Shown piece by piece: positions 44,516 through 62,016 of a DNA stretch of 64,000 nt. The position numbers and the translations under genes are program-made. The stretch comes from Candidatus Poribacteria bacterium (lineage in GTDB: Bacteria; Poribacteria; WGA-4E; WGA-3G), in the NCBI GenBank assembly GCA_028824575.1, contig JAPPDN010001023.1, forward strand, positions 25,347-89,346, given 5' to 3'. The notes under the pieces are model-generated. The model was not told the origin of the DNA. It worked only from the letters and a program-made list of their open reading frames with translations, and searched no databases. Numbering within the stretch: the first letter of the stretch is position 1; each line of letters opens with the position of its first letter.

Positions 44516-44696
44516 AGATCTGCTTGTGGTGTTCTGCGAAACCGATGCTGCACGCGTATTACAGGATTTAGAGCTTGCCTGGCCACTTTCTGGAAACTCG
44601 TGGAATTGGCACGAGAGCTCGCCGGGCCGATTCTCGGTAACTGTGGTTTCTCAATGTTTTTCGCTGTATAGGCGGAGACAAAAAAGGAGATTTTCA

Positions 44697-46169
44697 ATGA
44701 ACCGTGACATCTTCCGAGCGTATGATATTCGAGGTATTTTTGGCGTAGACTTTGCCCAGAAGGACTTTTATAGAATTGCCCGTGCCTTTGCTGCTCGCTT
44801 TCAACCGAAAACCGTTATAGTAGGACACGATGTCCGAGAAAGTTCACCACAACTTGGGCAGCAGGTCACTGAAGGACTCCGAGACTCAGGCGTTGATGTT
44901 CTCAATCTGGGTCAGATTTCAACCGATATGCTCTACTTCGCTGTGGCACACTATCAGACGGACGGTGGCATTACCATCTCCGCCTCCCATAATCCCGCAG
45001 CATATAACGGCATGAAACTGGTGCTCCGAAATGCAACACCCCTTTCATCAGACACTGGACTCTTTGACTTGCGCGATGAACTTGAACGCGGGAGCCGATT
45101 TCGGACACAAAGCACACACAGGCAAGGCACCCTTGCGTCTCTTCCATTTCTTGAGGCATACCTCACACACCTCCGCACGTTTATTAACTGGCAACATCTC
45201 TGCCAGAAACGGATCGTCATCAACGCTAACAGTGGGCTTGCGGGGCAGGTTGCCGAACGCCTGTTAGCGGGGACACCGATTCATATCTGTGAACGGTTGT
45301 TTACACAACCCGATGGCACATTCTCCGGCATTCCGGAGGGACGTCCCGACCCGTTGCGGCCGGAGAATCGTGGATTAACCACAAGGGCGATAAAACAGAC
45401 TGGAGCCGACTTCGCTGTCGCATGGGATGCGGATGCTGATAGGTGCTTTTTCTTTGATGAATATGGTGGATTTGTCGAGGGATGCTACATCACAGCCTTA
45501 TTTGCTGAATGTCTCCTTCAGCAAAACAGGGGCGGGGGGGTCATCTTTGATCCAAGGGCGATTTGGGCGGTAGAAGATGCTGTTCAAAACGCTAACGGCA
45601 CGCCTATCCTCAACCGATGCGGACATTCTTTTATCAAAGCTCGTATGCGAGAAATGGATGCACTTTTTGCGGGAGAGGCGAGCGGGCACTACTATTTCCG
45701 AGACAATTTCTATGCCGATAACGGCATGATTCCCTTTCTGCTTGTCCTTGAAAACCTCTGTGCCAAGCGACATTCACTCGCAGAATGGGTCGCTCGGCTC
45801 CGAGCAGAATATCCGGTCTCTGGCGAAATCAACTTTGCCTTTGAAAGCCACGGCCTGATGCGTGATGCTATGAACGCAGTCCAGCACACGCTGCACCGTT
45901 GGGGGACCCCCAGCATTGAAGCACCCATCGACGGGCTATCGGTCCGATTTCTCACGTCGTCTCGAAAACACACCACAGATCCGTTCGGGCGCGGCAACTG
46001 GCGGTTCAATCTTCGAGAGTCGAACACCGAACCTCTTTTGCGACTCAACGTTGAGACAAGGGGAAACGAAAATCTACTCATCGAGAAGACTGAAATACTC
46101 AGCAACGTGTTAGAGACACTTGGAGGCCGGAGAGAAACAAGGTTTCGTTGGGAGACAGGGTCTCGTTGA
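44697..46169 (+). CDS. Phosphomannomutase/phosphoglucomutase (alpha-D-phosphohexomutase)
   Basis: The start at MNRDIFRAYDIRG has an AAGGAG RBS. Active-site TISASHNPAAYNGMKL, metal loop DADADRCFFFDE, sugar loop GEASGHYYF. Confidence 0.9.
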   Translation: MNRDIFRAYDIRGIFGVDFAQKDFYRIARAFAARFQPKTVIVGHDVRESSPQLGQQVTEGLRDSGVDVLNLGQISTDMLYFAVAHYQTDGGITISASHNPAAYNGMKLVLRNATPLSSDTGLFDLRDELERGSRFRTQSTHRQGTLASLPFLEAYLTHLRTFINWQHLCQKRIVINANSGLAGQVAERLLAGTPIHICERLFTQPDGTFSGIPEGRPDPLRPENRGLTTRAIKQTGADFAVAWDADADRCFFFDEYGGFVEGCYITALFAECLLQQNRGGGVIFDPRAIWAVEDAVQNANGTPILNRCGHSFIKARMREMDALFAGEASGHYYFRDNFYADNGMIPFLLVLENLCAKRHSLAEWVARLRAEYPVSGEINFAFESHGLMRDAMNAVQHTLHRWGTPSIEAPIDGLSVRFLTSSRKHTTDPFGRGNWRFNLRESNTEPLLRLNVETRGNENLLIEKTEILSNVLETLGGRRETRFRWETGSR

Positions 46170-46594: not shown

Positions 46595-46636
46595 CTACGG
46601 GATTTACAAAATCTGAATGAAAGGAGGTAAAACCTA

Positions 46637-46831
46637 ATGAAAACCGCTAAACTGAATCGGATTAAAGAAGTCGGTAAAAAAACTGTTTCTGAATTCGTCC
46701 GTTCCGAAACTGGAAGTGTCGGTGTCAAGAATGCTGCAGCTATTGGAGCCTTCGCAGCCGCCCTCGCACTTAGCCAAACTCCCAGCGAAGCCATTACAGT
46801 GAGTATTGGTGGAGTTGTCACAGCAATATAA
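46637..46831 (+). CDS. 64-aa small peptide: candidate precursor or secreted peptide with an Flp-like N-terminus
   Basis: AAGGAGG RBS 9 nt upstream. MKTAKLNRIKEVGKKTVSEFVRSETGSVGVKNAAAIGAFAAALALSQTPSEAITVSIGGVVTAI. The N-terminal 40 aa are paralogous to the peptide at 58309..58581. A 13-bp stem-loop (46853-46885) follows the stop. Confidence 0.6.
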   Translation: MKTAKLNRIKEVGKKTVSEFVRSETGSVGVKNAAAIGAFAAALALSQTPSEAITVSIGGVVTAI

Positions 46832-47260
46832 CCCCACATACCCGAATCACTATGCCTTGGTTATCGTAGGCTGATAATCAAGGCACAGCGATTCGATATC
46901 AACACCCCCAACATTCCGTTCGCATAAAGATAGGGATCAGGTTTTATAGCGACTCCGTTTTCCCGATATGTCAAACGGCTGACTATTGTTCTACCAGAGG
47001 GTTAATATTCCGAATCAGATTTAGACGTTTTGTGAGGTGCGACCTGTCCCAAACCTTATCACAGGTTAGGATAGAACACTCTCAAGCGTCAAGGTCATAA
47101 TTCTATCCGGCATATTCTATAAGAGTATACTACAATTTTAAACGAAAGTCAAATTTTTAAAGCAACACTCCGTTCTCATACCCAAAGGCGGGCTGCATCC
47201 CCACGCGAAAGTGCGGAGATTTCTCCGGTAAATTTGAAAAAAATATATTGAGGAAGACCC

Positions 47261-48970
47261 ATGCTTAAATGTCCAGCAACACCCCATCGTCTCCACAAAT
47301 TCAGACACAAAGATAGGTTATATTTAGCGGATCTGAATCTGTTTCGGTTAATTGAAGTCAATCAAATTGCTTGGGATGCTGTGGAATTGTCCGTGACGCT
47401 GAAAACACCTGAGTTAATAGATCAGTTAAGCAAAATCTATCCGAAGCCATCCGTCATTGAAACTTTAGAAGCCTTGGGGGATCTTCAAAATAACGATCAT
47501 ATCTTTTATGCCGATTCACAGCAACATGCACCCACAGAAATTAGAGATCGGTTGAAAATTTATGTGCCCCAAAGCAAAGAGGCATGGTTTAAAGATCCGG
47601 AATCACTTTGCGCCGGAACGAATATCGCTTTATATCAAACAATGCAAAGTCTCTCGAAGTTCGCTGATGTTTACATATCGGGAGAATCAGAAGAAGAAAT
47701 CATTCCTGGCGTTCGCACAATAAAACTTTCGAGGGAGGAACTACAAGAATCACCGAGAAGATTCAATCAAAGCCTGAATGAATTGAAAGTGAACGGCATC
47801 TTGGCTTATCAAACCTGTGGCACTTATGACCTTTTACCCTTGCTCCGGGGCGTTAATGTGCCGATCGTTATCCAAAACCATGGTCCCCGAGGACATGCGG
47901 GTTTAGCGATTAATACCACACTGCTACATCACGCCTTAATGCGTCCGTTTGATGCCATTACGGCACCTTCAGAGTCCGTCGCCAAATTCTACGCAAAATT
48001 CGTCGGGGATACCCACCATTTTCACAGCAATCCCAATGGTGTAGATGCTCAGACCTTCAGACCCATGGATAAATCCGAGGCAAAAGCGCAACTCGCTGAA
48101 CTGATGCAAGATAATCGGATTCAAGAGCAATTCACCGTCGGATTTCTCTCGCGATTCCAACCCGAAAAGGGGGGGCATGTCTTTGTCCAATTGGCTGAAA
48201 AGCATCCGGACCTACTTTTTCTGGTAGGTGGGTCGTATTTACTCCGTCCATCCGCCCAGCAATTACCCGATAACCTCATCTATGTCGGCTTTTTACCTCG
48301 GAAACAGTTACCAATGCTCTACAACGCTTTTGATGTCTACTGTTTTCCGACAATGGCGGGAGAAGAGACGTTTGGACTCACACTCTTGGAAGCCATGGCG
48401 TGCGGGGTCCCCCCCGTGGTTCCGAGGTTTGATGGATTGCCTGAAGTTGTTGGAGAGGCAGGTGTCATTGTCGATGCCGAAGAGTTAGCAGAAGATATGG
48501 CAGGTTTCGCAGCTACTGTTTCCGCGGAGTCCCTATCTAAGGGCGTTCAGGAATTGATTGCGGATGAATTTCGCCTCGAAATCGGACAGAAGGCACGCAC
48601 TCGCGCCCTGACGCTCACATGGGATAACAACGCCAAACGTCTCGTTCAACTTTTCCAAGAATTAAATCAAATCAAACAGAACCAGCGGAACGCACCAGAC
48701 TTATCTGTGGGTTTCGTTAACCATTATGATGCGTTTCAAAATCAAGTGGAGAGTCAAGCACTCCTGCTCAATTTAACACCGTTGTTGGAGGCACCCTTAC
48801 AGAAAAAGAGTGGATATGTTCAAACAATGGAAGAAGGATTGGCACTCACTTTGCTAAAACGGCATACCCCCAAACAGGTGGAAGCCGTTCTATCGCACGT
48901 GTTAGACGATGCATCCAACGCCCCTAAAATTGTTCAAAGGGTTCTGAACTTCCTGAATGTGTTGGCGTAG
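47261..48970 (+). CDS. Fusion protein: N-terminal PqqD/RRE-like domain + GT4-type glycosyltransferase + conserved C-terminal module
   Basis: N-terminus HKFRHKDRLYLADLNLFRLIEVNQIAWDAVELSVTLKTPELIDQLSKIYP...ETLEALGDLQNNDHIF (PqqD-like pattern). GT motif GEETFGLTLLEAMACGVPPVVPRFDGLPEVV. C-terminal EEGLALTLLKRHTPKQVEAVLSHVL is shared with the next gene. Confidence 0.7.
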   Translation: MLKCPATPHRLHKFRHKDRLYLADLNLFRLIEVNQIAWDAVELSVTLKTPELIDQLSKIYPKPSVIETLEALGDLQNNDHIFYADSQQHAPTEIRDRLKIYVPQSKEAWFKDPESLCAGTNIALYQTMQSLSKFADVYISGESEEEIIPGVRTIKLSREELQESPRRFNQSLNELKVNGILAYQTCGTYDLLPLLRGVNVPIVIQNHGPRGHAGLAINTTLLHHALMRPFDAITAPSESVAKFYAKFVGDTHHFHSNPNGVDAQTFRPMDKSEAKAQLAELMQDNRIQEQFTVGFLSRFQPEKGGHVFVQLAEKHPDLLFLVGGSYLLRPSAQQLPDNLIYVGFLPRKQLPMLYNAFDVYCFPTMAGEETFGLTLLEAMACGVPPVVPRFDGLPEVVGEAGVIVDAEELAEDMAGFAATVSAESLSKGVQELIADEFRLEIGQKARTRALTLTWDNNAKRLVQLFQELNQIKQNQRNAPDLSVGFVNHYDAFQNQVESQALLLNLTPLLEAPLQKKSGYVQTMEEGLALTLLKRHTPKQVEAVLSHVLDDASNAPKIVQRVLNFLNVLA

Positions 48971-49025
48971 AACGTTTTCACATTTCTGCGGACGGGCGAG
49001 CATTTGCAACAGTGGAGGATTTACA

Positions 49026-50690
49026 ATGATTCAATTACCCAAAAGCCTTCAGCCAATTCATACATTTGAAGAAGCCGGTGTCTGGTATGTCGCACATCTC
49101 CAGAGGGGAGATGTCCTTAAAATTGACCCACTCACAGCCGATATTCTCACTTTATGTAGCACAACTGATAGCGCAGGGATTGTTAAAAAACTGGCGGACA
49201 CATACACAGAAGGCGAGATTCTTGAAAGTCTGAAAAATTTGAGTGGCGATATGGAGGAATTTCTGTTTGAACCTGAGGACATACCTGCTTTCCGCCGTAA
49301 AATAACGCAATCCAGATTAAGGATTTTTATTCCCCACGGCTTCATGAAGTATAGGGAAGTTCTGGGACCGACAGTGAATGCCGGGATTTATAACCTACTC
49401 GTAACGCTTACAAAATATGCCGATGTGTTTGTAGAGGCTGATAACAATCCTACCGTTATGGAACAGCGGGAGCAGCTAATGGCACTCGGTATTGAGTTCG
49501 TATCCGACCTCTTTGAAGCCAATAAGAATACCCCGGTGCATGCCGCAAATCGTTCTATCATTGAAGAGTGTGACGGCATCCTGACCCTTTCCCCACACCC
49601 ACATGAAGAATTGAATTATTTCCGGCATAACACGATCCCCGTAATTTCGCGCGTCTTTAGTGACAGAAATTTACGCGCAGCAACAATTAACAAAGTCCTC
49701 AGCCACCATTCCCTCCACCGCAGTTTTGATGTGGTTTGTCCAGATACGCCGTGGATATCAGAAGAGTTAGAGACAGTCACAGGGGCGCATTTCAATGGAT
49801 TAACCACGATTCCGAGCGGTGTTGATACTGAAGTCTATTCGCCTCAGAATCGTCAGAAGGCACGCGAAGTCGTCGCTTCCATCGTAGAGGAAGAAAGCAT
49901 TCTACAAATGCCATGTGTTGGATTCATTAATGGCTTTCAACCCCAAAATAACCTCAGAATGATAGAAGAGTTAGCAGTCTTACACAAAGACCTTGCCTTC
50001 ATCATCCTTGACCCAATTCTCTCGCGTCATCATTCCCAAAAACCCCGGAATGTTTTTTACATTGACCTGCAAAGTCCGGAGGATACGCTCGCGCTTTCTT
50101 GGATTTATAGCGCGTGTGAGTTTGTCATATTCCCATCCGTCATTGGGACCCCTTTTTCTATGGTCCTTGAGGCATTGGCGTGCGGGGTACCCGCACTCGC
50201 ACTCGCGCCAACACGTTTGTCTGAAGACTTGCGGGGTTGCATAAAATCCGTACCGATCACCCGAGAGACAACGACGGGTAAATTCGTTATCCCTACGGCT
50301 GCTGTCTCCGAAGAAATAAACGCCCTGCTGCGCGCGCCAAAGCAACGAGCGACCCTATCACGGAAAGCACGGGAAATCGCATCCAATTATTCCTGGGATC
50401 AAACAGCTCGAGAGATTATACAACTCTTTACTGCCCTCAATGAAAAGAAGATGCAGAAGGCAGTACCCACCTATCCCGATGTCGCTTTTTCGCCGTATTA
50501 CAACAAAGCGGAAAATGTCGTAAAAAGTGGTGCCCTACAGTTTGATGGTTTTTTTCAACATCGCGTTGAGGAAGGATTAGCGCAGACACTCTTAGCAGAA
50601 CACACGCCCGAGGAGGTCGGGGTGGTTTTGCGATACATACTCAAGGATGCAGAGAAAGCAGACGAAGTCTTATCTACACTGATATCTTAA
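49026..50690 (+). CDS. Paralogous fusion protein: PqqD/RRE-like domain + GT-B glycosyltransferase + conserved C-terminal module
   Basis: The start at MIQLPKS has a GGAGGA RBS. N-terminus FEEAGVWYVAHLQRGDVLKIDPLTADILTLCSTTDSAGIVKKLADTYTEGEILESLKNL. GT motif GTPFSMVLEALACGVPALALAP. C-terminus EEGLAQTLLAEHTPEEVGVVLRYIL. Confidence 0.7.
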   Translation: MIQLPKSLQPIHTFEEAGVWYVAHLQRGDVLKIDPLTADILTLCSTTDSAGIVKKLADTYTEGEILESLKNLSGDMEEFLFEPEDIPAFRRKITQSRLRIFIPHGFMKYREVLGPTVNAGIYNLLVTLTKYADVFVEADNNPTVMEQREQLMALGIEFVSDLFEANKNTPVHAANRSIIEECDGILTLSPHPHEELNYFRHNTIPVISRVFSDRNLRAATINKVLSHHSLHRSFDVVCPDTPWISEELETVTGAHFNGLTTIPSGVDTEVYSPQNRQKAREVVASIVEEESILQMPCVGFINGFQPQNNLRMIEELAVLHKDLAFIILDPILSRHHSQKPRNVFYIDLQSPEDTLALSWIYSACEFVIFPSVIGTPFSMVLEALACGVPALALAPTRLSEDLRGCIKSVPITRETTTGKFVIPTAAVSEEINALLRAPKQRATLSRKAREIASNYSWDQTAREIIQLFTALNEKKMQKAVPTYPDVAFSPYYNKAENVVKSGALQFDGFFQHRVEEGLAQTLLAEHTPEEVGVVLRYILKDAEKADEVLSTLIS

Positions 50691-50772
50691 CGAAGGGAAT
50701 TTTCAGTGAACAATTTCGCAAGTCAGTACGCCATACACCATTGCGATAAAATTAAAAAGAGGAAACCAAGAA

Positions 50773-52389
50773 ATGTCGAGACTCAAAATTGAACGACTTT
50801 TACGCATTGTTTTTATTTTAATTTTCTGTCTGATGCTGCTTCCATCTTTGGTTAAACGCCTGCTGCCGGCACCTAAGATTATCCAAACGATACCCGCTTT
50901 ATCGGAAACCACTAACATCCCAATTGAAACAAAACAGATTCGGATCGTATTTAATCAGCCGATGACAGAAGAGAAAAACATTCAATATCGAGGTATGCGG
51001 ATCAAAGGTCAACCGAAATGGGTCGATGAGAAGCGAACAATTTTAGCATTGACATTGACAGAACCCCTGGAACCCGAAGCGTTTTATAGTATCGTTTTGA
51101 ATGGAAGTTTAAATGGAAGATCCCAGAGCGATGACACAATGAAAGGGCAGTGGGGGAAACCGCTCCCTGAATATGCCTTGACGTTTATAACCGCGCCCTC
51201 CGAGACGATGCAAAAACGGATCGCTGCGTTTCAGTCGGGCACCCTCCATGACACCGATACCGACGGATTGGATGATACCCTCGAAGCCGAACTTGGCACC
51301 CTTTCTACAACACCTGATACGGATGGAGATGGATTGTCGGATTATGAAGAATATTGCAAATACCGAACAGATCCAACCTCAGCCGATAGTGATAGAGATG
51401 GAATCTCCGACGCAGATTGGAATGAGAGAAGGGAGTATACCTATAGTCTCAGAGTCGTTCTTGATATAAAACCGCCATGGAGTCTTGCGTCGATGAACGA
51501 CCTTTTCCAAGATGCCCGACACCTGGCGCACACGCAGTCTAATTATGAGAAGGTAGAAGTTATCGTTTATCCGTATGCTTCGCCTATGCTACTTCCGACC
51601 CGATATCCTTCTCAAATCGCATCTAAGTCCTTGAAAAAATATATTCAACCCACTTGTGATCTGAATTACTCACCAGAAATGCAGAGGGCAATAAAGGAAA
51701 TACTCTCTAATGAAACGCATACACTTGGGGTTATTGATAGATTGCAGCAGGAAGTCGGTCAAATGAAATTAACCGTGCCGCTTTACGATCCATTTATTTA
51801 TACCTATATGAATCACGGAGAATTGATAGTGGACCAAGAATTTTTCGACAGCATGGACAGAAAAATGACCGAAACAGAGATCGAAGAGGTATTGGCTGTG
51901 AATTACTTTGGGGATTCAATGTTCAAGCGAAAGCAGCACGGGGCTTGTATCTCTCGGGCTCGGATCCTTGCGACAATGTTGAGAGCTGCCGGTATCCCTG
52001 CTCGTGTAACCATGGGGGTGCCTCTGATATATTACTACAAAGGAACAGGTGAATGGGAACATCTTATTAAAAACCTAAATAATGAAGAAGTCGCAGGGAG
52101 TTTCTCTTACGAGCGTCCGTCGGCACCTAATGAAGTTGGCATCGTCGGACACAGTCAGGTTGAAGTTTATCTTAACAACCATTGGATTCGGTTGGGCTAT
52201 CAACTCAATGAAGGTCCTATATTTGCTGCGACAGACCTTGTGTTCATCAAGATCATTGACGCATCGGACTTCGCTTCAATAGATTTTACAAAAACTTGGG
52301 CACCCAGATCCTGGCTTAAAGCGCGTCCTTATCGCACTGTTGCGTTATCAGACCAAGCCGCGAAATATCAACCACATTCCTCCTATTAA
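50773..52389 (+). CDS. Secreted multidomain protein: Ig-like (SbsA/Big_5-type) + thrombospondin-type-3 Ca repeats + transglutaminase-like cysteine protease core
   Basis: Signal anchor LLRIVFILIFCLMLLPSL. IRIVFNQPM Ig-like motif. DTDTDGLDD...DTDGDGLSDYEE...DSDRDGISD repeats. HGACISRARILATMLRAAGIPARVTMG (Cys) and GHSQVEVYLNNHWIRLG (His). Confidence 0.7.
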   Translation: MSRLKIERLLRIVFILIFCLMLLPSLVKRLLPAPKIIQTIPALSETTNIPIETKQIRIVFNQPMTEEKNIQYRGMRIKGQPKWVDEKRTILALTLTEPLEPEAFYSIVLNGSLNGRSQSDDTMKGQWGKPLPEYALTFITAPSETMQKRIAAFQSGTLHDTDTDGLDDTLEAELGTLSTTPDTDGDGLSDYEEYCKYRTDPTSADSDRDGISDADWNERREYTYSLRVVLDIKPPWSLASMNDLFQDARHLAHTQSNYEKVEVIVYPYASPMLLPTRYPSQIASKSLKKYIQPTCDLNYSPEMQRAIKEILSNETHTLGVIDRLQQEVGQMKLTVPLYDPFIYTYMNHGELIVDQEFFDSMDRKMTETEIEEVLAVNYFGDSMFKRKQHGACISRARILATMLRAAGIPARVTMGVPLIYYYKGTGEWEHLIKNLNNEEVAGSFSYERPSAPNEVGIVGHSQVEVYLNNHWIRLGYQLNEGPIFAATDLVFIKIIDASDFASIDFTKTWAPRSWLKARPYRTVALSDQAAKYQPHSSY

Positions 52390-52446
52390 GGAGAGAGTGT
52401 CTGACCCTACCAAATCAGAATTTTAATGACTCAGGAGGTTTTGGAA

Positions 52447-53691
52447 ATGTTACAAATTAACGGACGGTTTAAAACAATCTCGACCCCGGCACTTTTCTTG
52501 ACGACTTTATTGATGAGCATAGGTTTGACGCTAACGCCCCACGCCGACATCGATCGAGGCCTCTTTTGTGCAGAGACACTCAGAGACCCGGGCAGTTTAG
52601 CGGTGAAACTCCAAGACAGGCGTGCCGCAGTGTCTGTATCCATAGCCAAGCGATTGCCGATTAATACACAGCAGTTGTTAGCGGAATACGATGGCCGAAG
52701 CAGTCCATCCTCTGAGCTGCAGGAAACACTACTTGCTGATTTGAATCGACTGATTCAAGTAGAATCTCTCTACGATGCTCAAGTGTTCGCAGATATTCAA
52801 CTCAGTGAACAGACGCAGGCACTCATTTCGCGAAAACCGCAAAGTAGAGAGGCACTGGTTCGCCTAAATCGGCACCTCTTAGCGGATGCCTATCCTTATG
52901 AATTAGCCTCGCCTTCAGAGAAACAGACACCTCGGCATTCTGAAGGTATTGCGCTATGTAGAGAAAATTTGCGGCGGATCAAACTCGCTCTTGACAGTTA
53001 TCGGGCTTCCACAGATACAGACCCGCAATGGCTTTCCGATCTTTCACCACACTATCTCGAGAAGAACGTGCTGCTCTGCCCCGCAGACGCGACAGCCGGG
53101 ACACCCGGCGTCCTAACTGATGGCGGTGCCGACCCAACGCATCCTTGCAGTTATCTCTATGAGATGCGTCCTGCTCAGAAAACCGATCACGAACTTTTAC
53201 GAACACTCGAAGGTGAGATGACACCTATCGTTCGGTGTGAACACCATCGTCTCAACCTAAGCATCAGCGGAAAACTCTATCGTAACGGTCCGCAAAGAGG
53301 CATCTATACCAGCAACAAGACAGAAATATCTTTGCTAACTGACTGTAGGAAAGACCTACAGATGCAACTCGGAGAAGATTTCCTAAAAACGCAGGAAAGT
53401 CGACAGAAACTCAAGAGAGAAGCTGAAAAACTGATTATCAAACAGTTGGTGCCGAAAATCATCAGCCACTCAGAGAAAGAGGTTTACTCTCAACTTGAAG
53501 CGCAACTCGGAAAAGGTCTTCTGAAAACACCAATAGGGAAGGGTGTCTTCAAACAAGTCATAACGCAGGTAAAAGAAAAGCTTAATGAAAAATTACAGTT
53601 GCAACTTCAAGCGCAACTCGGAGCGGAATTTTTTGAAACCCAAGAAGGGAAAGACGTACTTCAACAATTATCCGTGTTGATGTCCCCTTAA
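52447..53691 (+). CDS. Hypothetical secreted protein with C-terminal QLGxxF(L/F)xTQEG repeats
   Basis: The start at MLQINGRF has GGAGG 8 nt upstream. Signal-like ALFLTTLLMSIGLTLTPHA. Repeats are MQLGEDFLKTQESRQ, AQLGKGLLKTPIGKG and AQLGAEFFETQEGKD. Confidence 0.55.
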   Translation: MLQINGRFKTISTPALFLTTLLMSIGLTLTPHADIDRGLFCAETLRDPGSLAVKLQDRRAAVSVSIAKRLPINTQQLLAEYDGRSSPSSELQETLLADLNRLIQVESLYDAQVFADIQLSEQTQALISRKPQSREALVRLNRHLLADAYPYELASPSEKQTPRHSEGIALCRENLRRIKLALDSYRASTDTDPQWLSDLSPHYLEKNVLLCPADATAGTPGVLTDGGADPTHPCSYLYEMRPAQKTDHELLRTLEGEMTPIVRCEHHRLNLSISGKLYRNGPQRGIYTSNKTEISLLTDCRKDLQMQLGEDFLKTQESRQKLKREAEKLIIKQLVPKIISHSEKEVYSQLEAQLGKGLLKTPIGKGVFKQVITQVKEKLNEKLQLQLQAQLGAEFFETQEGKDVLQQLSVLMSP

Positions 53692-53784
53692 GGTCTTTAT
53701 CCCTGAATATATTCTAATCTAAGGTTTCCGCTGTTAGGAAAGATGAAGCACTTAAGTGGATAAAAAAATGGAGGAGGAATTCCC

Positions 53785-55212
53785 ATGTTAATGACATTAA
53801 TTCAAAAAGAAATTATGCATCATGTTCTGAGTGTTCGGTTTGTCGCACTCCTATTGATGTGTGTTTTGCTCATCCCACTGACCCTTTCCATCAATCATCG
53901 TAAGTATAGCCAGAACCTGATAGACTATCAGGAATCGGTGAAACGCGCCCGTACAGAAGCGAAGGAGAATCCACCAGATGCCCAGAACCCAAACACAGAA
54001 GTTTCCAAACTTTTTCTCAAACCGACACCGTTGAGCGTCTTCGCAAGCGGCTTAGAGGAGGCATTGCCTACCTATCTTGGGATGACGCGTAATGGGGTCC
54101 GGCAGGGGTCAACGGGACTTGCTCAGGCATCTGTGGCGTATGTGCTTGGTAATCTTGATTTTCTATTTATTGTGGGGACGGTTTTCAGTCTGTTGGCACT
54201 TCTGTTCACGTTTGATGCCGTTGCTGGAGAGAGAGAAGCTGGGACCCTTCGGGTAAATCTGTCAAACCCCCTTCCCCGAGATGTCTTTTTGTGGAGCAAG
54301 CTGATCGGGGGATACATTGTGTTTGTGGTTCCATTTCTGGTGTCTTTCCTCTTGGGATTGCTCATACTCGTGGGGCAGAAATTTCCTTTAGGCGAGTTCG
54401 AGGTTATTGCACCTGTGTTGGGGCTCCTGCTTATCTCGTTACTTTATATTGCTGTGTTTTTCGCAATAGGTGTGTTCATCTCAACATACCTGGATAACTC
54501 TAAGACGGCACTGATTGTCGCTTTTACGTTTTGGGTATTTGCGGTGCTGGTTGCACCCCGAGGGGCATTTGTGATTGCTAAACTTGGCGCACCTACGCAA
54601 ACACAGCAGGCTGTTTACATGAAAAAAACAGCACTTCACAATAACTTGACGCAAGATAAGCAAAGCAAAATCGATAAAAAAGTGAGTGAAACCTTGGGGA
54701 CCAATTTAAATTTAAACGCGGAGACGCAAAAAAGGTTGGATGAAATCAGAAAACCGATTGAAGAGAAATTCCGATTGGAACTTCAGAACCAATCGGCTAA
54801 GATTGACAAAGAATACCAGCGCGAAAAGGATCGTCAAGAACAGGTTGGAGAAATGCTCTCTCGGATCACGCCAACGTCTTCTCTGATGTATGCTGCGATA
54901 AACCTAACCCAAACGGGTAAGTTAAAAAGGAACGCTTATTTTCAGACAGGTGAAAAGTATTACAGTCAACTTGAGGATTCGTATTTCAGCGAAATTTCCG
55001 ACGATGTGCTGGCACAGATACTGCGAATAGCAGCTCGGATGGACACTTCTTCCGAATCAAAAACAGAAGAAATCCTACCGCCCCCAAGCCTGACGGAACC
55101 CACTTTTTCTGAAACGTTGCGTCGGTCTACCCTGGATGTGTTCCTGCTCGTTTTCGCTGCTTTAGCGTTTACAACGATGGCGTTTCTGAGATTCTTCCGT
55201 TCTGATATTTAA
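53785..55212 (+). CDS. ABC-2-type transporter permease-like membrane protein (no cognate ATPase adjacent)
   Basis: GGAGGAGG RBS. MLMTLIQKEIMHHVLSVRFVALLLMCVLLIPL is a typical ABC-2/NosY-like start. Five further helices, then a long charged coiled segment and a terminal helix. Confidence 0.6.
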   Translation: MLMTLIQKEIMHHVLSVRFVALLLMCVLLIPLTLSINHRKYSQNLIDYQESVKRARTEAKENPPDAQNPNTEVSKLFLKPTPLSVFASGLEEALPTYLGMTRNGVRQGSTGLAQASVAYVLGNLDFLFIVGTVFSLLALLFTFDAVAGEREAGTLRVNLSNPLPRDVFLWSKLIGGYIVFVVPFLVSFLLGLLILVGQKFPLGEFEVIAPVLGLLLISLLYIAVFFAIGVFISTYLDNSKTALIVAFTFWVFAVLVAPRGAFVIAKLGAPTQTQQAVYMKKTALHNNLTQDKQSKIDKKVSETLGTNLNLNAETQKRLDEIRKPIEEKFRLELQNQSAKIDKEYQREKDRQEQVGEMLSRITPTSSLMYAAINLTQTGKLKRNAYFQTGEKYYSQLEDSYFSEISDDVLAQILRIAARMDTSSESKTEEILPPPSLTEPTFSETLRRSTLDVFLLVFAALAFTTMAFLRFFRSDI

Positions 55213-55588: not shown

Positions 55589-56554
55589 TCAGTCTTTCCT
55601 TTGCGACAACCGCTGAATTTGGCAATGTAACACAACATAGCGTTCAAAATCGCTGGAGATTGATTTCGGCATCACCTGGGCCCTGTGATGGTCACTCACC
55701 CGCTTCCACGTTCCGTCGCGTTGCCGTCTTTCGATCTTCATGTAATCTTCGAGCGGGCACCGATACTGGAGATTGTTGCTATACCAGTAGGTGTCATCGG
55801 TTTTCTGGCATTTCCCGTTGACCCATTCTTCGCGGATCGGTTCAGTTTGTGTCCGTCCTGGGAGGGGCTTGGGATATAACTGAAAGATCGCGGGTTTCGA
55901 TTTAGGGCTCAACCGTTCCAGCATCCCTACCTGCGTGAGTTCGGTGAGTATCGAGTGAAAAGTTGCGAGTTTGATTCGACATCTTTTCGACAGTTCGAGG
56001 AGTGTTGCCTGTTCTGTCTGTCCTGCGGTGTCCTCGTGTGCCTTCCAGTTCGATCGAAGTTTCAACACAATCCAGACGAGGGCGGCTTTCCATGAGATGT
56101 CGCCATCAAAACAGCGTTCCAAGGGACCTCCGGGCCCGCGTGGCACTGCGAACGTCAACGGCTTCCCATCTTTATTGACAGGAACATCCTGATACGGACA
56201 AAGATGATGTCGAATCCGATAGCGTTTTCCCGCAGGGTTGTCAGCGTCGATCGTCTTGAGCCAGCCTTTATCCTTGAGGCTCGTTAAATTCTTGATGATG
56301 TACGGTTTTGACATTCCCGGTCCTAATTTCCCTGATAAATAATTGCCCGACATGGGCCAGGTTATCCCAGAATCCCATGAGCTGCCGTGGTGGAGACACA
56401 GACAAATCATTGCTTGGGCTGTCGTGAGGTTACCCTCTCGGAGTTCCCACAGGACACTATATTGACCGCGGGGCACAGGCAGTGTGTCGGTTTCAAACTC
56501 ATACGGGATCGGGTATTTGCCACCAAGAGGCAGATAAATTTGCTGACTGCTCAT
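55589..56554 (-). CDS. Two-winged-helix DNA-binding protein, candidate replication initiator (Rep-like)
   Basis: Two wHTH-like segments: MSKPYIIKNLTSLKDKGWLKTID and ATLLELSKRCRIKLATFHSILTELTQVGMLERL. Iteron-like repeats are adjacent. An 11-bp perfect inverted repeat (56651-56685) lies upstream of the start. The function is inferred. Confidence 0.4.
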   Translation of the reverse strand: MSSQQIYLPLGGKYPIPYEFETDTLPVPRGQYSVLWELREGNLTTAQAMICLCLHHGSSWDSGITWPMSGNYLSGKLGPGMSKPYIIKNLTSLKDKGWLKTIDADNPAGKRYRIRHHLCPYQDVPVNKDGKPLTFAVPRGPGGPLERCFDGDISWKAALVWIVLKLRSNWKAHEDTAGQTEQATLLELSKRCRIKLATFHSILTELTQVGMLERLSPKSKPAIFQLYPKPLPGRTQTEPIREEWVNGKCQKTDDTYWYSNNLQYRCPLEDYMKIERRQRDGTWKRVSDHHRAQVMPKSISSDFERYVVLHCQIQRLSQRKD

Positions 56555-57271: not shown

Positions 57272-58093
57272 CTATGTTTGCTCGGAAATGGCTCTATCAA
57301 CCCTTAAACTCACTAAACTCATAACCAAATGCTTCGCTACAACGAAAACAACGAAATACATCCCTAAGAAAAAGATAATACTCGAAAAAAACGCCTCCAC
57401 ACACACTGATAACTGCAGTGAAACCCATACGGTCAGAAAACCAGTAATCGCATAATAAACGGGCGTTCTCGGAACACACGACACCAATTTCCCCAGCACA
57501 GTGAACACGCTCAATACCATAACCAGACGCACAAATCCATCCGGCTGCCACCCTAGCCAGTCCGACAGATACGTCAACCCAGAACTGACACCGATCAGGA
57601 GAAGCACGTTAAAGCATTGCTCAAGGAGTGCGGATTTCTCGAAATTTGACATCACAAAACTCTGGAAAAGCAACAACTTGTCGCGTTTTAGGGCGAATCT
57701 GAAAAAGAGGTACACCAGCACGGCTACCGAATACGGGAGGATGATGTTCAGCGCAAGGATCAACGGGGGAAAACTGAACGTCCCGTCCAGGCGTGTCAAT
57801 AGCGATCGCGGAAAGACCAGACATAACCCGCAAAGCAATTTTGAATCCCCAGGCGAGAAAATACCGAACCAATACACCCCAAACGCCATAAAACCGATCC
57901 CTAAAAAAAGCAACAACACATAAATCGGCGCTGTCATACGAAGATACCATGCCATCAATGTGCTCAACGTCCGCGCATGAAGCAGCCCCAGCGAACAAAC
58001 ATTGCGGATCCGCCCCGTCTTCAGGTCGGTATAACCCGCATACCCACGGAAAGTAGGGACTAACGATAGAAGAACGCTCTCGTAGTGTGACAT
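57272..58093 (-). CDS. A24-family (prepilin/TadV-CpaA-type) aspartyl peptidase-like membrane protein
   Basis: The start at MSHYESV has an AAGGAG RBS. First Asp motif YTDLKTGRIRN, second Asp motif IFSPGDSKLLCGL. Polytopic. Confidence 0.65.
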   Translation of the reverse strand: MSHYESVLLSLVPTFRGYAGYTDLKTGRIRNVCSLGLLHARTLSTLMAWYLRMTAPIYVLLLFLGIGFMAFGVYWFGIFSPGDSKLLCGLCLVFPRSLLTRLDGTFSFPPLILALNIILPYSVAVLVYLFFRFALKRDKLLLFQSFVMSNFEKSALLEQCFNVLLLIGVSSGLTYLSDWLGWQPDGFVRLVMVLSVFTVLGKLVSCVPRTPVYYAITGFLTVWVSLQLSVCVEAFFSSIIFFLGMYFVVFVVAKHLVMSLVSLRVDRAISEQT

Positions 58094-58308
58094 CGGTGTC
58101 TCCTTTTCATGAAACCTGTATGCCTCAACCCCGGTAGGTGCGATTTCATGAAGTTTCAAAAAATATTTCGGTAATTCTCTATTTCCCCCGACCCGGTAGG
58201 TGTGGTTTCTAACCGCACCGGCATCGTTGGGAAATTACCAAATTAATAAATTAATCTTCATTTAACCGCACCGGAGATTATTAGAAAATTACTTACCCGG
58301 ACCACGAG

Positions 58309-58581
58309 TCAAACGCATTTGTCTACCCACTCCCCATTGCATTCGGTCCCTTGCAGCGTTCCCTCACACACCTCTTCACAACTTTCCCACAAGTTACAGT
58401 CAAAGTCACTATCACACTCTTCTTTTCCAGAATCATAAGAATGTGCAGAAGGCGGCAGCAGGGCTTGCGCTAACAGCACGCTCCCACTTGCTATGCCTAA
58501 TACCAAGGGTGTTTTCAGACCGACACGTCCCTCTTCAGATGTCAGAAATTGCTTAATTTTTCCACGAAGTTTAGTTTTCAT
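58309..58581 (-). CDS. 90-aa peptide: Flp-like N-terminus plus acidic 6-cysteine C-terminal module
   Basis: ATG at 58581 with an AAGGAG RBS; the longer ORF-track form to 58827 has none. MKTKLRGKIKQFLTSEEGRVGLKTPLVLGIASGSVLLAQALLPPSAHS then YDSGKEECDSDFDCNLWESCEEVCEGTLQGTECNGEWVDKCV. Confidence 0.55.
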   Translation of the reverse strand: MKTKLRGKIKQFLTSEEGRVGLKTPLVLGIASGSVLLAQALLPPSAHSYDSGKEECDSDFDCNLWESCEEVCEGTLQGTECNGEWVDKCV

Positions 58582-59085: not shown

Positions 59086-62016
59086 ATGGTAGATAACGAC
59101 GTTCAACTGATTCGCAGAATTTTGTCGGGCGACGATGAAGCGTTCAGTACATTAATGCGGAAGCACCAAAAAGGCGTTCACGCGCTGATCTGGCGGAAAA
59201 TTGGGGACTTTCAAATCGCTGAGGAAATTACCCAAGATACCTTTATCCAGGTTTACAAAAAACTCGGGACCCTCGACGATCCCAAACGATTTTCCGGCTG
59301 GCTTTATGTCATCGCGAATCGCCTCTGTATTAATTGGCTCCAACGCGATAAGGTAAAAATGGATAAGTTGAATACACAATCCTTCGAGGATACACATCCA
59401 GAGGAAATAGAAGAGGCCTCTCACCTACACCATGCGTCACATCAACGTGAAGCTGAAGCCGAGAGTCGTCGACGGAATCTCGTAAAAACGCTTTTGGAGA
59501 AACTCCCGGAGAGCGAACGCACTGTCGTGACGCTTTACTTTCTCGGTGAAATGACGGCCAAAGAGATCGGCAATTTTTTAGGCGTATCCATCAACACAAT
59601 TAAGAGCCGACTCCGCCGGGCGCGCAAACGTCTCCAAGAAGAGGAAGCCTTGGTCCAAGAAACGCTTAGGGGTGTGCAATTGTCTGACAGTCTCACTGAG
59701 AATGTGATGCGACACATTGCCGAGCTGAGCCCACCCGCGCCACCCCCGTCTAAGAAACCCTTACTTCCTTTGGCGGCACTCGGTGCCGTAGCCGTCTTGG
59801 CGGTCCTCTTCGGTATCGGGGGGCAATATCTCCTCCGGTTTCAGGCACCATACAGTTTCGATGCCGACGCTGAGCCTACCATCGAAATCGTTGATGAACT
59901 CGTCTACCTTGAGATTCTCGCCAAACCCGCAGTGCGGAACCGGAGCGGCAGAACGATCGCACCCGGTGAAAACAGCGGTGCCGGGATGCAAACCGCCGAG
60001 CCTCACTTCACCGCAAACGCAGCGGACGACACGGGGGCCGACTCACAGTGGACACAGGCAATCGGCCCGACAGGCAGTATTGTCTACAATATCTTTGAAG
60101 CCGCTGACGGAACCCTCTACGCTGCCGCAAAAACAGGGCTCTATAAATTGACACCCGAGGCAACATGGGTGCTTCTTAACGCTGACATCCCGATTGGACA
60201 GTACCGAATCCCTATCACCGAGCACCACGGCACCCTCTATACCGTCTCCGCTGATGAAGTGTTGGCTTCAGAAAATGGGGGTGAGACTTGGGATGCCCTT
60301 GGCGCGCGCCCAAAGGGCATCGCGAATGGACTCATCATCACCGAGTCACCCGAGACAGAAGGTATCACCCTGTCCCTCGCCCTTCAAGAGAAAGGCATCT
60401 TCCGATCTACCGATACCGGTCAGCACTGGATGCCCCTCACCACCGGATTGACAGGGAAACGGATTTATACCCTCGCTGCCATCGGAAATACCTTATTCGC
60501 TGGCACCAACCAAGGCCTCTATCGGCTCGATTCAAACGAATGGCACCCATTGCTCACAGACGCAGCCGATGCCATCTACGCCGTGACCGTTGACGGAAGC
60601 GACCTGTATGTCGGAATGGGTCGAGATGTCGAGAGGTCGGTATCCAGGAGACTCAGGCGCCCTAAATCCATAGACAAAAGAATCTTCCACTCCGCGGATC
60701 TTGGAGCGTCATGGACGGACATAACGCCTATAGATGAATCCCAAGTGATGCATCTCGACTCCGGCCTACAGATTTTGGCTGTAGATAAAACGCTCTTCGT
60801 CCTCGGCGTAACCGAATTTCGATCCGGGGATGGCGGGAAAACCTGGACACGCCTCAGATCTAACATAAGTTCAAAGGACACATCGAGATTCCCAGCGATC
60901 GCTATCGATGCGAATACATTTTACAAAGTCGATCCGCACGGAATCAGCCGCACCACCGATGCCGGTGAGTCCTGGCACCCGCTTGTAAACGGGATGACAG
61001 GTCCCAGAACATACGACTTAATTGCCCTGAATCAGAGACTCTATATGCATATCGGTGGACACCTGGTCCACTCCACCGATGCCGGTCAGACCTGGCAACG
61101 CCTGCGCTTCAATACCGATGCGCCGACACCCACATTGGATCCCGATTTTTATGCACGCATAAGACTCACAACTGCCAATAATCGCCTCTATGGCATTTCA
61201 ATTGTGGAGAACAGACCGAGTCTTTTCCGAACATCCGATGCCGGAGATGAACTCATCCCCCTCCAAGGGGTCCCCGCTTTTGAACCCGAGCCACCCCCAG
61301 CCAGGGCAAGCGATAGGTTGCGTCTATCGAGAAAAGTAGGTTTAAGAATCAAAGCCTTCGCTGTCTGGGGTGAGACGTTTTACGCGAAATATCAGGAGAA
61401 ACTTTACAAATGGCACCCCGGAGATACCGAATGGACAGACACAGGACTTGCCGATCTCGACTTTCTATCTTCTATCTTGGCTGTTTCTGGGGAAACTGTC
61501 TACATCAGTAAGCCGTACGGTAAGCCGCGCGGAACATTGTTTCAATCTTTAGACGGCGGAGACTCTTGGAAAGACATCACTGCAAGGCTGCCGAGCGGAT
61601 CCACACGTTCTTTAGACGACGGAGATGTCTTGAAACACAAGGGCATACTGACGAGAAGCCACTTCACACGTTTTAAGGAGATGACCTTCATCGGTTCAGC
61701 CGTTTGTATCGCAACCGACACAGGTGTCCTCACCTCACACACCGGAGAACACTGGCGGGTTATCACAGATAAAAACCGGATGCCCATCGTCATAGAAAAA
61801 TTCGCTACAGACGGCACAACCCTCTACGGGGTCAGCAAGAACGGTGCCTACCGCTTCAATGCTGCCGGAGACTGGGAACTGATTTCCTCAGAGGTTCCCA
61901 ACGGTTCGATTCAATCTCTCGTTATCAGTAACAATCGACTTTACATCGCAACCTCCAGCGACGGCATATTCCACATCTCGCTTGAGGAGCAGATCGATAT
62001 CGCCAACTCGTTCTAA
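59086..62016 (+). CDS. ECF sigma-70 factor fused through one transmembrane helix to a large BNR/Asp-box beta-propeller ectodomain
   Basis: Sigma region 2 AEEITQDTFIQVYKKLGTLDDPKRFSGWLYVIANRLCINWLQR. Region 4 LPESERTVVTLYFLGEMTAKEIGNFLGVSINTIKSRLRRARKRL. TM LLPLAALGAVAVLAVLFGIGG. At least 7 Asp-boxes (SENGGETW, STDTGQHW, SADLGASW, SGDGGKTW, TTDAGESW, STDAGQTW, SLDGGDSW). Confidence 0.85.
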   Translation: MVDNDVQLIRRILSGDDEAFSTLMRKHQKGVHALIWRKIGDFQIAEEITQDTFIQVYKKLGTLDDPKRFSGWLYVIANRLCINWLQRDKVKMDKLNTQSFEDTHPEEIEEASHLHHASHQREAEAESRRRNLVKTLLEKLPESERTVVTLYFLGEMTAKEIGNFLGVSINTIKSRLRRARKRLQEEEALVQETLRGVQLSDSLTENVMRHIAELSPPAPPPSKKPLLPLAALGAVAVLAVLFGIGGQYLLRFQAPYSFDADAEPTIEIVDELVYLEILAKPAVRNRSGRTIAPGENSGAGMQTAEPHFTANAADDTGADSQWTQAIGPTGSIVYNIFEAADGTLYAAAKTGLYKLTPEATWVLLNADIPIGQYRIPITEHHGTLYTVSADEVLASENGGETWDALGARPKGIANGLIITESPETEGITLSLALQEKGIFRSTDTGQHWMPLTTGLTGKRIYTLAAIGNTLFAGTNQGLYRLDSNEWHPLLTDAADAIYAVTVDGSDLYVGMGRDVERSVSRRLRRPKSIDKRIFHSADLGASWTDITPIDESQVMHLDSGLQILAVDKTLFVLGVTEFRSGDGGKTWTRLRSNISSKDTSRFPAIAIDANTFYKVDPHGISRTTDAGESWHPLVNGMTGPRTYDLIALNQRLYMHIGGHLVHSTDAGQTWQRLRFNTDAPTPTLDPDFYARIRLTTANNRLYGISIVENRPSLFRTSDAGDELIPLQGVPAFEPEPPPARASDRLRLSRKVGLRIKAFAVWGETFYAKYQEKLYKWHPGDTEWTDTGLADLDFLSSILAVSGETVYISKPYGKPRGTLFQSLDGGDSWKDITARLPSGSTRSLDDGDVLKHKGILTRSHFTRFKEMTFIGSAVCIATDTGVLTSHTGEHWRVITDKNRMPIVIEKFATDGTTLYGVSKNGAYRFNAAGDWELISSEVPNGSIQSLVISNNRLYIATSSDGIFHISLEEQIDIANSF

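Follow-up and report, generated by a model that had tools for sequence, protein, structure and literature searches.

Peptide genes linked to paired RRE-glycosyltransferase proteins in Candidatus Poribacteria: a candidate system for leader-guided peptide glycosylation

The DNA considered here (the window) is a stretch of 64,000 nt from contig JAPPDN010001023.1 of Candidatus Poribacteria, and the subject is a cluster in which genes for small peptides accompany two large paralogous genes. Each of the latter encodes a protein of the glycosyltransferase (GT) type preceded by a domain homologous to the recognition elements (RREs) that bind the leaders of peptides made on ribosomes and modified after their translation (RiPPs). 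The protein encoded at 47261-48970 is termed GT-A and its paralogue at 49026-50690 is termed GT-B. The initial annotation had proposed a RiPP-like system of a precursor peptide and two RRE-glycosyltransferase fusions between 46637 and 55212, and every open reading frame (ORF) that it listed in this interval is present where it was placed. The reading favoured below, to which we give a little better than an even chance, is that of a leader-guided peptide glycosylation system specific to Candidatus Poribacteria, in which RRE-guided glycosylation would be followed by processing by an aspartic peptidase of family A24 and by export. The central features of the window, where the ORFs scanned with Pfam were those at 33-64 kb, are as follows (HMM, hidden Markov model; GT4, glycosyltransferase family 4).

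46623-46627, plus strand: Shine-Dalgarno sequence GGAGG, read from the sequence, 9 nt ahead of the ATG of the peptide gene
46637-46831, plus strand: putative precursor peptide of 64 aa (leader HMM, E=1.4e-16)
46843-46895, plus strand: RNA hairpin 3' of the precursor gene (-29.8 kcal/mol, z=-6.6)
47261-48970, plus strand: GT-A, 569 aa, with an intact GT4
47261-47515, plus strand: RRE of GT-A, residues 1-85, a PqqD-like winged helix (profile match to CteB, 5WGG)
47552-48682, plus strand: catalytic GT4 domain of GT-A, of the GT-B fold and retaining type (Pfam Glycos_transf_1, 83 bits)
48683-48967, plus strand: C-terminal module of GT-A, with the motif EEGLAxTLLxxHT (AlphaFold2 model, pLDDT 81)
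49026-50690, plus strand: GT-B, 554 aa, a probable RRE-pseudo-glycosyltransferase (RRE HMM, E=3.1e-27; C-terminal HMM, E=5.6e-20)
57272-58159, minus strand: A24-type (prepilin/preflagellin-like) aspartic peptidase, 295 aa, truncated (family HMM, E=9.7e-92)
58309-58581, minus strand: second putative precursor, 90 aa, with a hypervariable core containing six Cys (leader HMM, E=1.7e-23)

The start of GT-B was taken as the ATG at 49026, which agrees with the starts of its orthologues; a frame of 577 aa from 48957 is also open.

The identification of the N-terminal domains comes from both profile searches and a structure model. A profile built from 26 of these domains, drawn from both paralogue families, was compared with the PDB and gave a single strong match to a solved structure, residues 4-90 of CteB (5WGG), at E=1.9e-12; this stretch we take to be the leader-binding RRE of the SCIFF thioether maturase. 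When the N-terminus of GT-A was used as a single sequence, it matched the N-terminus of the NCBIfam model not_ScfB, a ScfB-like radical-SAM maturase, at E=1.3e-4. The AlphaFold2 model of GT-A, based on an alignment of 65 sequences, has a mean pLDDT of 85.8 and values of 85-95 in the RRE region, where strands at residues 11-16, 19-24, and 29-33 are followed by helices at 35-43, 49-56, and 62-77; this b1-b2-b3-a1-a2-a3 order over residues 11-77 is the topology of an RRE (winged helix-turn-helix). Sub-threshold matches to the Pfam PqqD model were obtained for 9 of the 26 domains (best E=5e-4), and it is because Pfam PqqD is matched only at this level that the domain is called an RRE from its homology to CteB and its predicted fold. 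The proposal that both large proteins begin with such a domain is, thus, borne out by the profile comparison and by the predicted topology. When 1.84 billion representative proteins were searched exhaustively with a profile, 491 matched, the GT fusions standing on top, and the nearest relatives without a GT, appearing from about E=2e-17, were radical-SAM proteins of 460-500 aa with the CX3CX2C motif.

The two large proteins are paralogous over their full length, the N-terminal domain and the EEGLAxTLLxxHTP module included (26% identity, E=9e-54), as had been proposed. GT-A scores 83 bits with Glycos_transf_1, for which the Pfam cut-off is 26.4, and its Foldseek matches include MshA, PimA, and BshA, with E-values down to 2.5e-19. 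It keeps the Arg/Lys diphosphate pair R298/K303 (LSRFQPEKG) and the EX7E motif E369-x7-E377 (GEETFGLTLLE), and these catalytic residues are strongly conserved. GT-B, in contrast, reaches only 21 bits with its best Pfam GT model, below the cut-off like its matches to all the others, and in the same motif columns reads INGFQPQNN and G--TPFSMVLE. In all eight orthologue pairs (8/8), R298 is replaced by G and K303 by N, a deletion removes the first Glu from EX7E, and PRGH is missing, and yet GT-B retains both the RRE and the C-terminal module. The statement that each protein has a GT with an E-x7-E motif was, therefore, half right, because only GT-A keeps the GT4 catalytic signature. From these substitutions, GT-B is probably a degenerate, non-catalytic partner of GT-A. 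About 570 homologues of GT-A were found, and every one with a name belongs to Candidatus Poribacteria. In NCBIfam, the best matches of the GTs are enzymes acting on lipids or polysaccharides, all far under the cut-off.

The C-terminal module shared by the two paralogues consists, in the AlphaFold2 model, of a beta-hairpin and four helices. It has no significant sequence match in the PDB and no fold relative by Foldseek (best E=0.29). A second RRE was considered for this module and found to be unsupported, with an hhalign probability of 2.7%, no PDB match, and a Foldseek E-value of 1.2 to PqqD. Its function is possibly in dimerisation or in a second contact with the peptide.

The 64-aa ORF, for which a strong ribosome-binding site had been claimed, does carry GGAGG before its ATG, and the ORF belongs to a conserved peptide family; a protein identical to it has already been deposited as a hypothetical protein of Candidatus Poribacteria. 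Its leader, residues 1-52, has a basic N-terminus, the motif FVRSETGSVGVK, an Ala-rich hydrophobic stretch at 32-46, and an SQTPSEA boundary, and is followed by a hypervariable core of 12 aa, ITVSIGGVVTAI. The leader of the 90-aa peptide is MKTKLRGKIKQFLTSEEGRVGLKTPLVLGIASGSVLLAQALL, and the family contains many near-identical leaders joined to different cores. Across the family, the leader is about 50 aa long, with a basic start, an invariant F-x-x-S-E-x-G-x-V-G, and a hydrophobic stretch that has an AxA-like site at its end, after which comes the hypervariable tail. A profile search with the family gave 959 clusters; no Pfam domain occurs in any of them, and those that carry a name all come from Poribacteria. 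The peptides range from 64 to 105 aa, with a hydrophobic maximum (KD15) of 1.6-1.8. The contrast between leader and core is marked in both sets compared: identity is 64% in the leader versus 39% in the core of the Cys-rich set, and 74% versus 30% in the subfamily of the 64-aa window peptide, which comprises 64 clusters. Among the matches listed, the tails contain four to six Cys and the leaders none. The cores of the window subfamily are 12-22 residues long, with 23% Ser/Thr and 37% Ile/Val/Leu, and 42 of the 64 clusters end in -Ala-Ile. The family, therefore, has the form expected of RiPP precursors, gene-encoded peptides in which the leader is conserved and the core varies.

A 13-bp stem-loop had been noted past the stop codon of the peptide gene, and the structure proves to be stronger than this, with a core stem of 14 bp (one G-U pair) inside a structure of 22 bp; none of 200 shuffled sequences was as stable as the hairpin at 46843-46895. 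A canonical terminator was considered and ruled out, because the hairpin is not followed by a T-run. In two orthologous loci, L001 (z=-4.4) and L002 (z=-4.7), a hairpin likewise stands after the last peptide gene, although its sequence is unrelated, and none follows the first of the tandem copies. The hairpin is a candidate attenuator or mRNA stabiliser that would set the ratio of peptide to enzyme. A search of the 430-nt gap downstream of the peptide gene, with its flanks, against Rfam gave only a chance match to a lncRNA (E=0.03).

The association of the peptides with the GT pair was surveyed in 13 RRE-GT loci, namely, the window, L001-L005, and L085-L091, which are about 40-93% identical and include a metagenome-assembled genome from Guaymas sediment and other contigs from JGI metagenomes. 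L001 and L002 are close relatives, as are L003 and L004, so that about 10 of the 13 are independent; L005 and L088-L091 were outside the training set of the leader HMM. This HMM found at least one family peptide ORF in the flanks of 13/13 RRE-GT loci and none in 79 unrelated GT4 loci (1.39 Mb), the latter coming from an 80-locus scan in which a full-length GT alignment had keyed on generic GT4 motifs (EAMACGVP). The neighbourhood survey, in which an absence of small ORFs beside homologous GT pairs would have spoken against a precursor, gave instead one conserved peptide family in every locus. In the reverse test, in which peptides alone were used to search JGI metagenome contigs, the contigs of 6 kb or more numbered seven, of which five carry the RRE-GT pair and four an A24 peptidase; the genes on these contigs are all co-directional, with two to six peptide genes each. 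Matching lengths suggest that 22 of the 64 clusters of window-type peptides lie on the same contig as a GT-A cluster, in some cases on one that is only 3.1-4.9 kb long. The genetic linkage of modifying enzyme to precursor that is characteristic of RiPP pathways is, therefore, found here in both directions (13/13 forward, 5/7 reverse, and 0/79 in the controls).

A membrane peptidase, which the initial annotation had not noted, recurs in these loci. In L005, it is a 383-aa membrane protein whose gene is joined to those of the GT and the pseudo-GT by overlapping stop and start codons, and homologues occur in 8 of the 13 loci. Pfam recognises Peptidase_A24 in six of these eight members (best 4.6e-10) and the archaeal C-terminal domain Arc_PepC in seven; the family invariants are the motifs Y-T-D and G-D-x-K-L (D45; G104-D105-x-K107-L108). 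The family has no PDB match by sequence, and its identity rests on Pfam. The copy in the window matches the Peptidase_A24 protein of L002 at E=1e-17 and retains both Asp motifs (YTD and GDSKL), but has 295 aa as against about 380, the Arc_PepC-like last 90 or so residues that are present in all seven orthologues being missing.

Four further genes lie on the same strand as the GT pair, one upstream of the peptide gene and three downstream of GT-B.

44526-46169, plus strand: phosphoglucomutase/phosphomannomutase, PGM/PMM (Pfam PGM_PMM_I-IV, E=1e-31 to 1e-4)
50773-52389, plus strand: secreted Big_5/TSP3/transglutaminase-core protein with a Cys-His fold, 538 aa (Pfam Transglut_core, E=5e-8)
52426-53691, plus strand: protein of 421 aa that has a hydrophobic anchor at its N-terminus and QLG..F..TQEG repeats towards its C-terminus
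53785-55212, plus strand: ABC-2 family permease, no ATPase gene adjacent (Pfam ABC2_membrane_2, E=3.7e-33)

The real start of the PGM/PMM gene is likely near 44694 (MNRDIF...). PGM/PMM and NTP_transferase genes also flank the orthologous clusters of L001 and L002, and PGM/PMM is a candidate supplier of the sugar-1-phosphate for a nucleotide-sugar donor. The transglutaminase-fold protein also matches Pfam TSP3_bac and Transglut_core3 (E=0.008), has orthologues in L001, L002, and L088 with the conserved motifs G-x-C-x-SRA and H...NNHWIRL, and is a candidate enzyme for extracytoplasmic processing or cross-linking. The ABC-2 permease, which has an orthologue in L001, is a candidate exporter or immunity component. 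It and the transglutaminase-fold protein are the neighbours that are conserved within the clade of the window. The three downstream genes had been assigned to the same operon as the GTs, and the ORFs do exist; however, the 421-aa repeat protein, which has no match in Pfam or NCBIfam, is absent from L001 and L002, and its membership of the system is doubtful for this reason.

In the clades of about 40% identity, peptide genes alternate with genes for secreted beta-propellers of the PD40/TolB-like or BNR type, and these clades further encode a methyltransferase and a multihaem/DsbA-like protein. In six loci (L005, L085-L087, L089, and L090), each peptide gene or pair of peptide genes is followed by a gene for a secreted propeller of about 335 aa, PD40/TolB-like or BNR, and a protein with both Cytochrome_C554 and DsbA/GILT is conserved as well. 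This layout of peptide and propeller recalls quinohemoprotein amine dehydrogenase, with its small Cys-rich gamma subunit, its beta-propeller, and the RRE-bearing radical-SAM protein QhpD.

The favoured mechanism for this leader-guided system can be set out in steps. In the cytoplasm, the leader would be bound by the predicted N-terminal RREs of both paralogues. GT-A would then move a sugar from a nucleotide sugar to the peptide, most plausibly onto a Ser or Thr (or a Cys) of the core; the candidate sites are the Ser/Thr residues of the window-subfamily cores, the conserved Ser, Thr, and Cys residues of the Cys-rich cores, and the invariant Ser of the leader. The donor could be GDP-mannose or a GDP-heptose, and a dedicated donor of this kind is suggested by the flanking PMM and by the NTP-transferase or heptose-kinase genes in relatives. 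GT-B, as a probable non-catalytic partner, may hold or present the peptide, by analogy with what GtfB does for GtfA. The archaeal-type A24 aspartic peptidase is the candidate for cutting at an invariant glycine of the leader, an alternative being signal peptidase I at the AxA-like site, and the product would be inserted into the membrane or exported across it. Outside the cytoplasm, its partners would be the transglutaminase-fold protein and the ABC-2 permease in the clade of the window, whereas sister clades would use beta-propellers together with a DsbA-like oxidoreductase.

The case for the peptide as the acceptor of the sugar is argued from genomic and domain evidence, and several observations weigh against it. 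The peptide gene had been described as lying directly upstream of the first GT; in fact, it does not abut GT-A but is separated from it by a gap of 430 nt and a strong hairpin. The Pfam PqqD model (PF05402) does not reach its gathering score, GT-B giving 15.6 bits as against a cut-off of 23.4 (E=0.02). The A24 copy of the window, besides being truncated, lies on the opposite strand and 2 kb away. The accessory genes vary by clade, with the transglutaminase-fold protein in the clade of the window and beta-propellers elsewhere. Finally, the peptides could be not strict RiPPs but mini-proteins of an ordinary kind, secreted or anchored in the membrane, given their signal- or transmembrane-like segment and AxA-like site.

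One alternative shares much with the leader-guided system and differs from it mainly in the product, which would be a filament or an anchor and not a peptide that is released. The peptides would be minimal subunits like Flp or archaeal pilins, or anchored surface peptides: A24 would cut at the Gly, the helix would anchor or polymerise, the variable C-termini would be displayed, and the RRE-GT pair would be dedicated to glycosylating the prepilin, whose leader it would grip. The conserved Gly and hydrophobic stretch of the leader do resemble a class III or Flp-type signal, and F-[LV]-x-S-E-x-G, taken with the hydrophobic residues behind it, is similar to the Flp prepilin leader, F-L-K-D-E-S-G/ATAIEY. 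The small size of the peptides and their hydrophobic maximum would also fit, as would an A24 peptidase with an Arc_PepC domain in 8/13 loci, translationally coupled to the GTs in L005. However, ten members of the family gave no match to Flp_Fap or any pilin model of Pfam at E<=10, so that membership of the Flp pilins was rejected and a resemblance is all that remains. The Glu5/Tyr6 of Flp and type IV pilins is replaced, the position of Glu5 after the cleaved Gly being occupied by Lys, Asn, Ser, or Thr in the peptide alignments. No gene for a pilus assembly ATPase, platform protein, or secretin was found in the 13 neighbourhoods (the Pfam lists of 12 of them and the window ORFs at 33-64 kb). 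Cleavage at the AxA-like site past the hydrophobic segment would remove the presumed anchor, and dozens of paralogues with Cys-rich, knot-like cores are not what would be expected of pilins. We, therefore, regard this explanation as unlikely. The initial annotation had itself offered an Flp-like pilin or secreted peptide as its second reading, and this was partly true, because an A24 prepilin-type peptidase, as found in Flp and type IV pilin systems, belongs to the system; the pilin models, Glu5, and the assembly genes do not bear it out.

Another alternative arises from a relationship to HXS. According to work from 2026, HXS acts against phages, and in it a small periplasmic effector, HxsA, needs radical-SAM proteins for its N-terminal processing, and 99.7% of its distribution is in Pseudomonadota (PMC13128918). 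The peptides of the Poribacteria family match the N-terminal part of the NCBIfam model HxsA3 weakly (E=0.004-0.2), the close relatives at 11-17 bits as against a cut-off of 65; the 64-aa and 90-aa peptides of the window gave no HxsA3 match on scanning and have no visible HxS repeats. The connection is closest in one hybrid locus, L088 (a contig of ENA ERZ24794679, 1-18400). Here, GT and pseudo-GT are fused as one protein of 1,024 aa, and the family peptide has a His-rich tail and matches HxsA3 at E=6e-7 (29 bits, cut-off 65). The locus also encodes HxsB-like (6.7e-97), HxsC4-like (1.5e-39), and HxsD-like proteins, an HddA-like enzyme related to heptose kinases, a transglutaminase-fold protein, and an A24 peptidase. 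Since L088 combines both sets of enzymes, the system is linked to the HXS family, and it appears to be an HXS relative in which glycosyltransferases have taken the role of the maturases.

This link could be carried further, to a variant of HXS-like defence or effector maturation in which the RRE proteins are mainly leader-binding chaperones or processing factors that serve the export of a periplasmic effector peptide, while GT-A acts on a lipid carrier, on a propeller or transglutaminase partner, or on the envelope. The HxsA3 matches, the joining of the fused GT pair with Hxs-like proteins in L088, and the probable lack of catalysis in GT-B would be consistent with this idea, as would the dependence of the cleavage and export of HxsA on other Hxs proteins (PMC13128918) and the position of the L091 cluster beside defence-type genes (ThsB_TIR, DpnII). 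However, the window is not itself an HXS system, because no radical-SAM ORF is found in it: none of the ORFs of 250 aa or more in the whole window has CX3CX2C, and the window lacks HxsD, a match to the HxsA model, and His-Xaa-Ser repeats; among the loci, HxsB/C/D-like proteins occur only in the hybrid L088. Moreover, the HxsA3 matches, at 11-29 bits, are far under the cut-off, the defence-island context was met only once, and GT-A is fully catalytic, strongly conserved, and fused to a peptide-binding domain, for which peptide glycosylation is the simplest account. This variant is, consequently, considered improbable, somewhat more so than the pilin-like one. In the case of L091 (7500-17227, minus strand), the cluster of RRE-GT, peptide, and A24 genes abuts genes of the defence-island type, comprising ThsB_TIR, DpnII-MboI/QueC, NUDIX, and an integrase.

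That these are ordinary GT4 genes for envelope polysaccharide or glycolipid lying by chance near an abundant family of small ORFs, with a regulatory or structural winged helix, can be all but set aside, since, although GT4 enzymes mostly act on lipids or polysaccharides (the kind of enzyme found among the sub-threshold NCBIfam matches) and a multi-copy peptide family makes some adjacency expected, the linkage is two-way and co-directional (13/13 and 5/7 loci versus 0/79 controls), the N-terminal domain, which even the catalytically dead paralogue retains, has specific homology to an RRE whose leader binding is established structurally, and the cluster has no flippase, polymerase, or priming transferase genes.

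When the leader-guided glycosylation system is compared with those already described, none of them corresponds to it, and its overall logic of leader, RRE, tailoring enzyme, peptidase, and export is that of a RiPP pathway. A curated, named system was considered as the identity of the cluster and discarded, as NCBIfam has no matching model and, in particular, no system-specific model for the GTs, the A24 peptidase, the propellers, or the 421-aa protein. Its unusual features are a GT4 and a pseudo-GT4 that both carry RREs, an archaeal-type A24 peptidase, an HxsA3-like leader bearing a signal, a distribution across the whole phylum, and the number of peptides in the library.

There is a likeness in enzyme architecture with CteB/SCIFF, a ranthipeptide system, and with the radical-SAM/SPASM maturases in general, in which a homologous RRE of about 90 residues stands at the same, N-terminal, end of the enzyme and the leader of the substrates is conserved, their core being variable and often rich in Cys. 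The difference is that, here, the RRE precedes a GT4 domain rather than a radical-SAM/SPASM domain with CX3CX2C, and that the enzyme comes as two paralogues, one active and one inactive, with an additional module at the C-terminus. If glycosylation does occur, the glycocins, with their S/O-glycosyltransferases of the SunS, ThuS, and GccB types, would be alike in that a ribosomal, disulfide-rich peptide is glycosylated in the cytoplasm before export. Glycocin leaders are of the double-glycine type and are removed by a C39 ABC transporter, and we know of no glycocin GT that carries an RRE; the Poribacteria system has, in contrast, a GT4 with an RRE, an A24 peptidase, and a leader confined to this phylum. 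Glycosylation has been called rare in RiPPs, and the characterised RiPP GTs are mostly GT2 enzymes, of the GT-A fold (PMC11912497).

Fusions of RREs with glycosyltransferases were predicted by RRE-Finder in 2020 (PMC7470986) and by a structure-based update in 2025 (PMC12710340), the latter naming an RRE-GT family, PF00535, that belongs to GT2. One supplement to these reports contains no entry for GT4/PF00534 or for Poribacteria. These fusions are predictions and, unlike the cluster described here, have no substrate family, pseudo-enzyme partner, or A24 peptidase attached to them, nor have they been characterised. With HXS, the likeness lies in a small exported protein, in the N-terminal processing by cytoplasmic maturases that is a feature of HXS, in the weak HxsA3 match of the leader, and in the hybrid L088; the difference, apart from the missing radical-SAM proteins, HxsD, and repeats, is that the modification here is presumably a glycan.

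The pairing of the two GTs has its own parallel. In the O-GlcNAc transferase GtfA/GtfB, a catalytic GT4 is accompanied by an inactive paralogue of the GT-B fold that presents the protein substrate in the cytoplasm before export. The pair of intact GT-A and degenerate GT-B is similar, although the sequence relation is marginal (4PQG, E=0.14), and GtfA/GtfB has no RRE and acts on very large serine-rich-repeat adhesins that leave via accessory Sec. The Flp/Tad prepilins with TadV, and the archaeal class III signals with FlaK, PibD, or EppA, are like the peptides in having a basic N-terminus, a conserved Gly, a hydrophobic segment, and an A24 peptidase, and unlike them in the Pfam, Glu5, and assembly-machinery respects already given; the cores are, moreover, hypervariable and either Cys-rich or Thr/Ile-rich. 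A search of the literature turned up no publication that connects prepilin peptidases to RiPPs or to peptides of Poribacteria, and the sponge 'srp' proteusins, to judge from the titles of the papers on them, are a different peptide family.

A more ambitious proposal can be made tentatively, and we rate its parts, taken jointly, at clearly below even odds. This would be an undescribed, phylum-wide class of ribosomal peptides in which an RRE-GT4 with a dead paralogue glycosylates the precursor, a leader that is a hybrid of RRE motif and class III signal is removed by A24, and the whole is an offshoot of HXS; about 1,000 peptides, Cys-knot or Thr/Ile-rich, would be paired with propellers or with a transglutaminase-fold protein and would serve possibly in phage defence or in the interaction with sponges. 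If the leader-guided system is real, a GT4 guided by a leader would be a new enzymatic logic for attaching sugars to peptides, and RRE plus leader could become a portable tag for glyco-engineering. About 1,000 small genes now annotated as hypothetical would also gain a function, as would several hundred GT genes, in a phylum that is uncultured and dominates many sponges. Three fields that have so far been separate, those of RiPP recognition elements, prepilin-type peptidases, and the HXS antiphage system, would be joined, and the active/inactive RRE-GT pair would offer a simple test case for the presentation of peptide substrates by pseudo-enzymes.

Other genes around the cluster are described here for completeness. 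The gene at 55589-56554 on the minus strand, with the ABC-2 permease on one side and the A24-like gene on the other, encodes a 321-aa protein with only weak winged-helix matches (MarR/IclR-like, E=0.008-0.03), which may be a regulator. At 59086-62016 on the plus strand, a 976-aa fusion joins an ECF sigma-70 factor (regions 2 and 4) to a transmembrane segment and a beta-propeller of the BNR/Sortilin type, and in L003 and L004 the same fusion adjoins the clusters of RRE-GT and peptide genes; it could serve in sensing or regulation, with the exported peptides as its signal. An ORF of 134 aa (MDSNYRYKDARLKPK...) adjoins the sigma-propeller gene with high identity in two genomes, at 62452-62856 on the plus strand of the window and at 1465-1869 on the minus strand of L004. 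Upstream of the cluster, amid a long stretch of minus-strand genes, an ORF of 1,980 aa occupies 7961-13903 of the window (minus strand).

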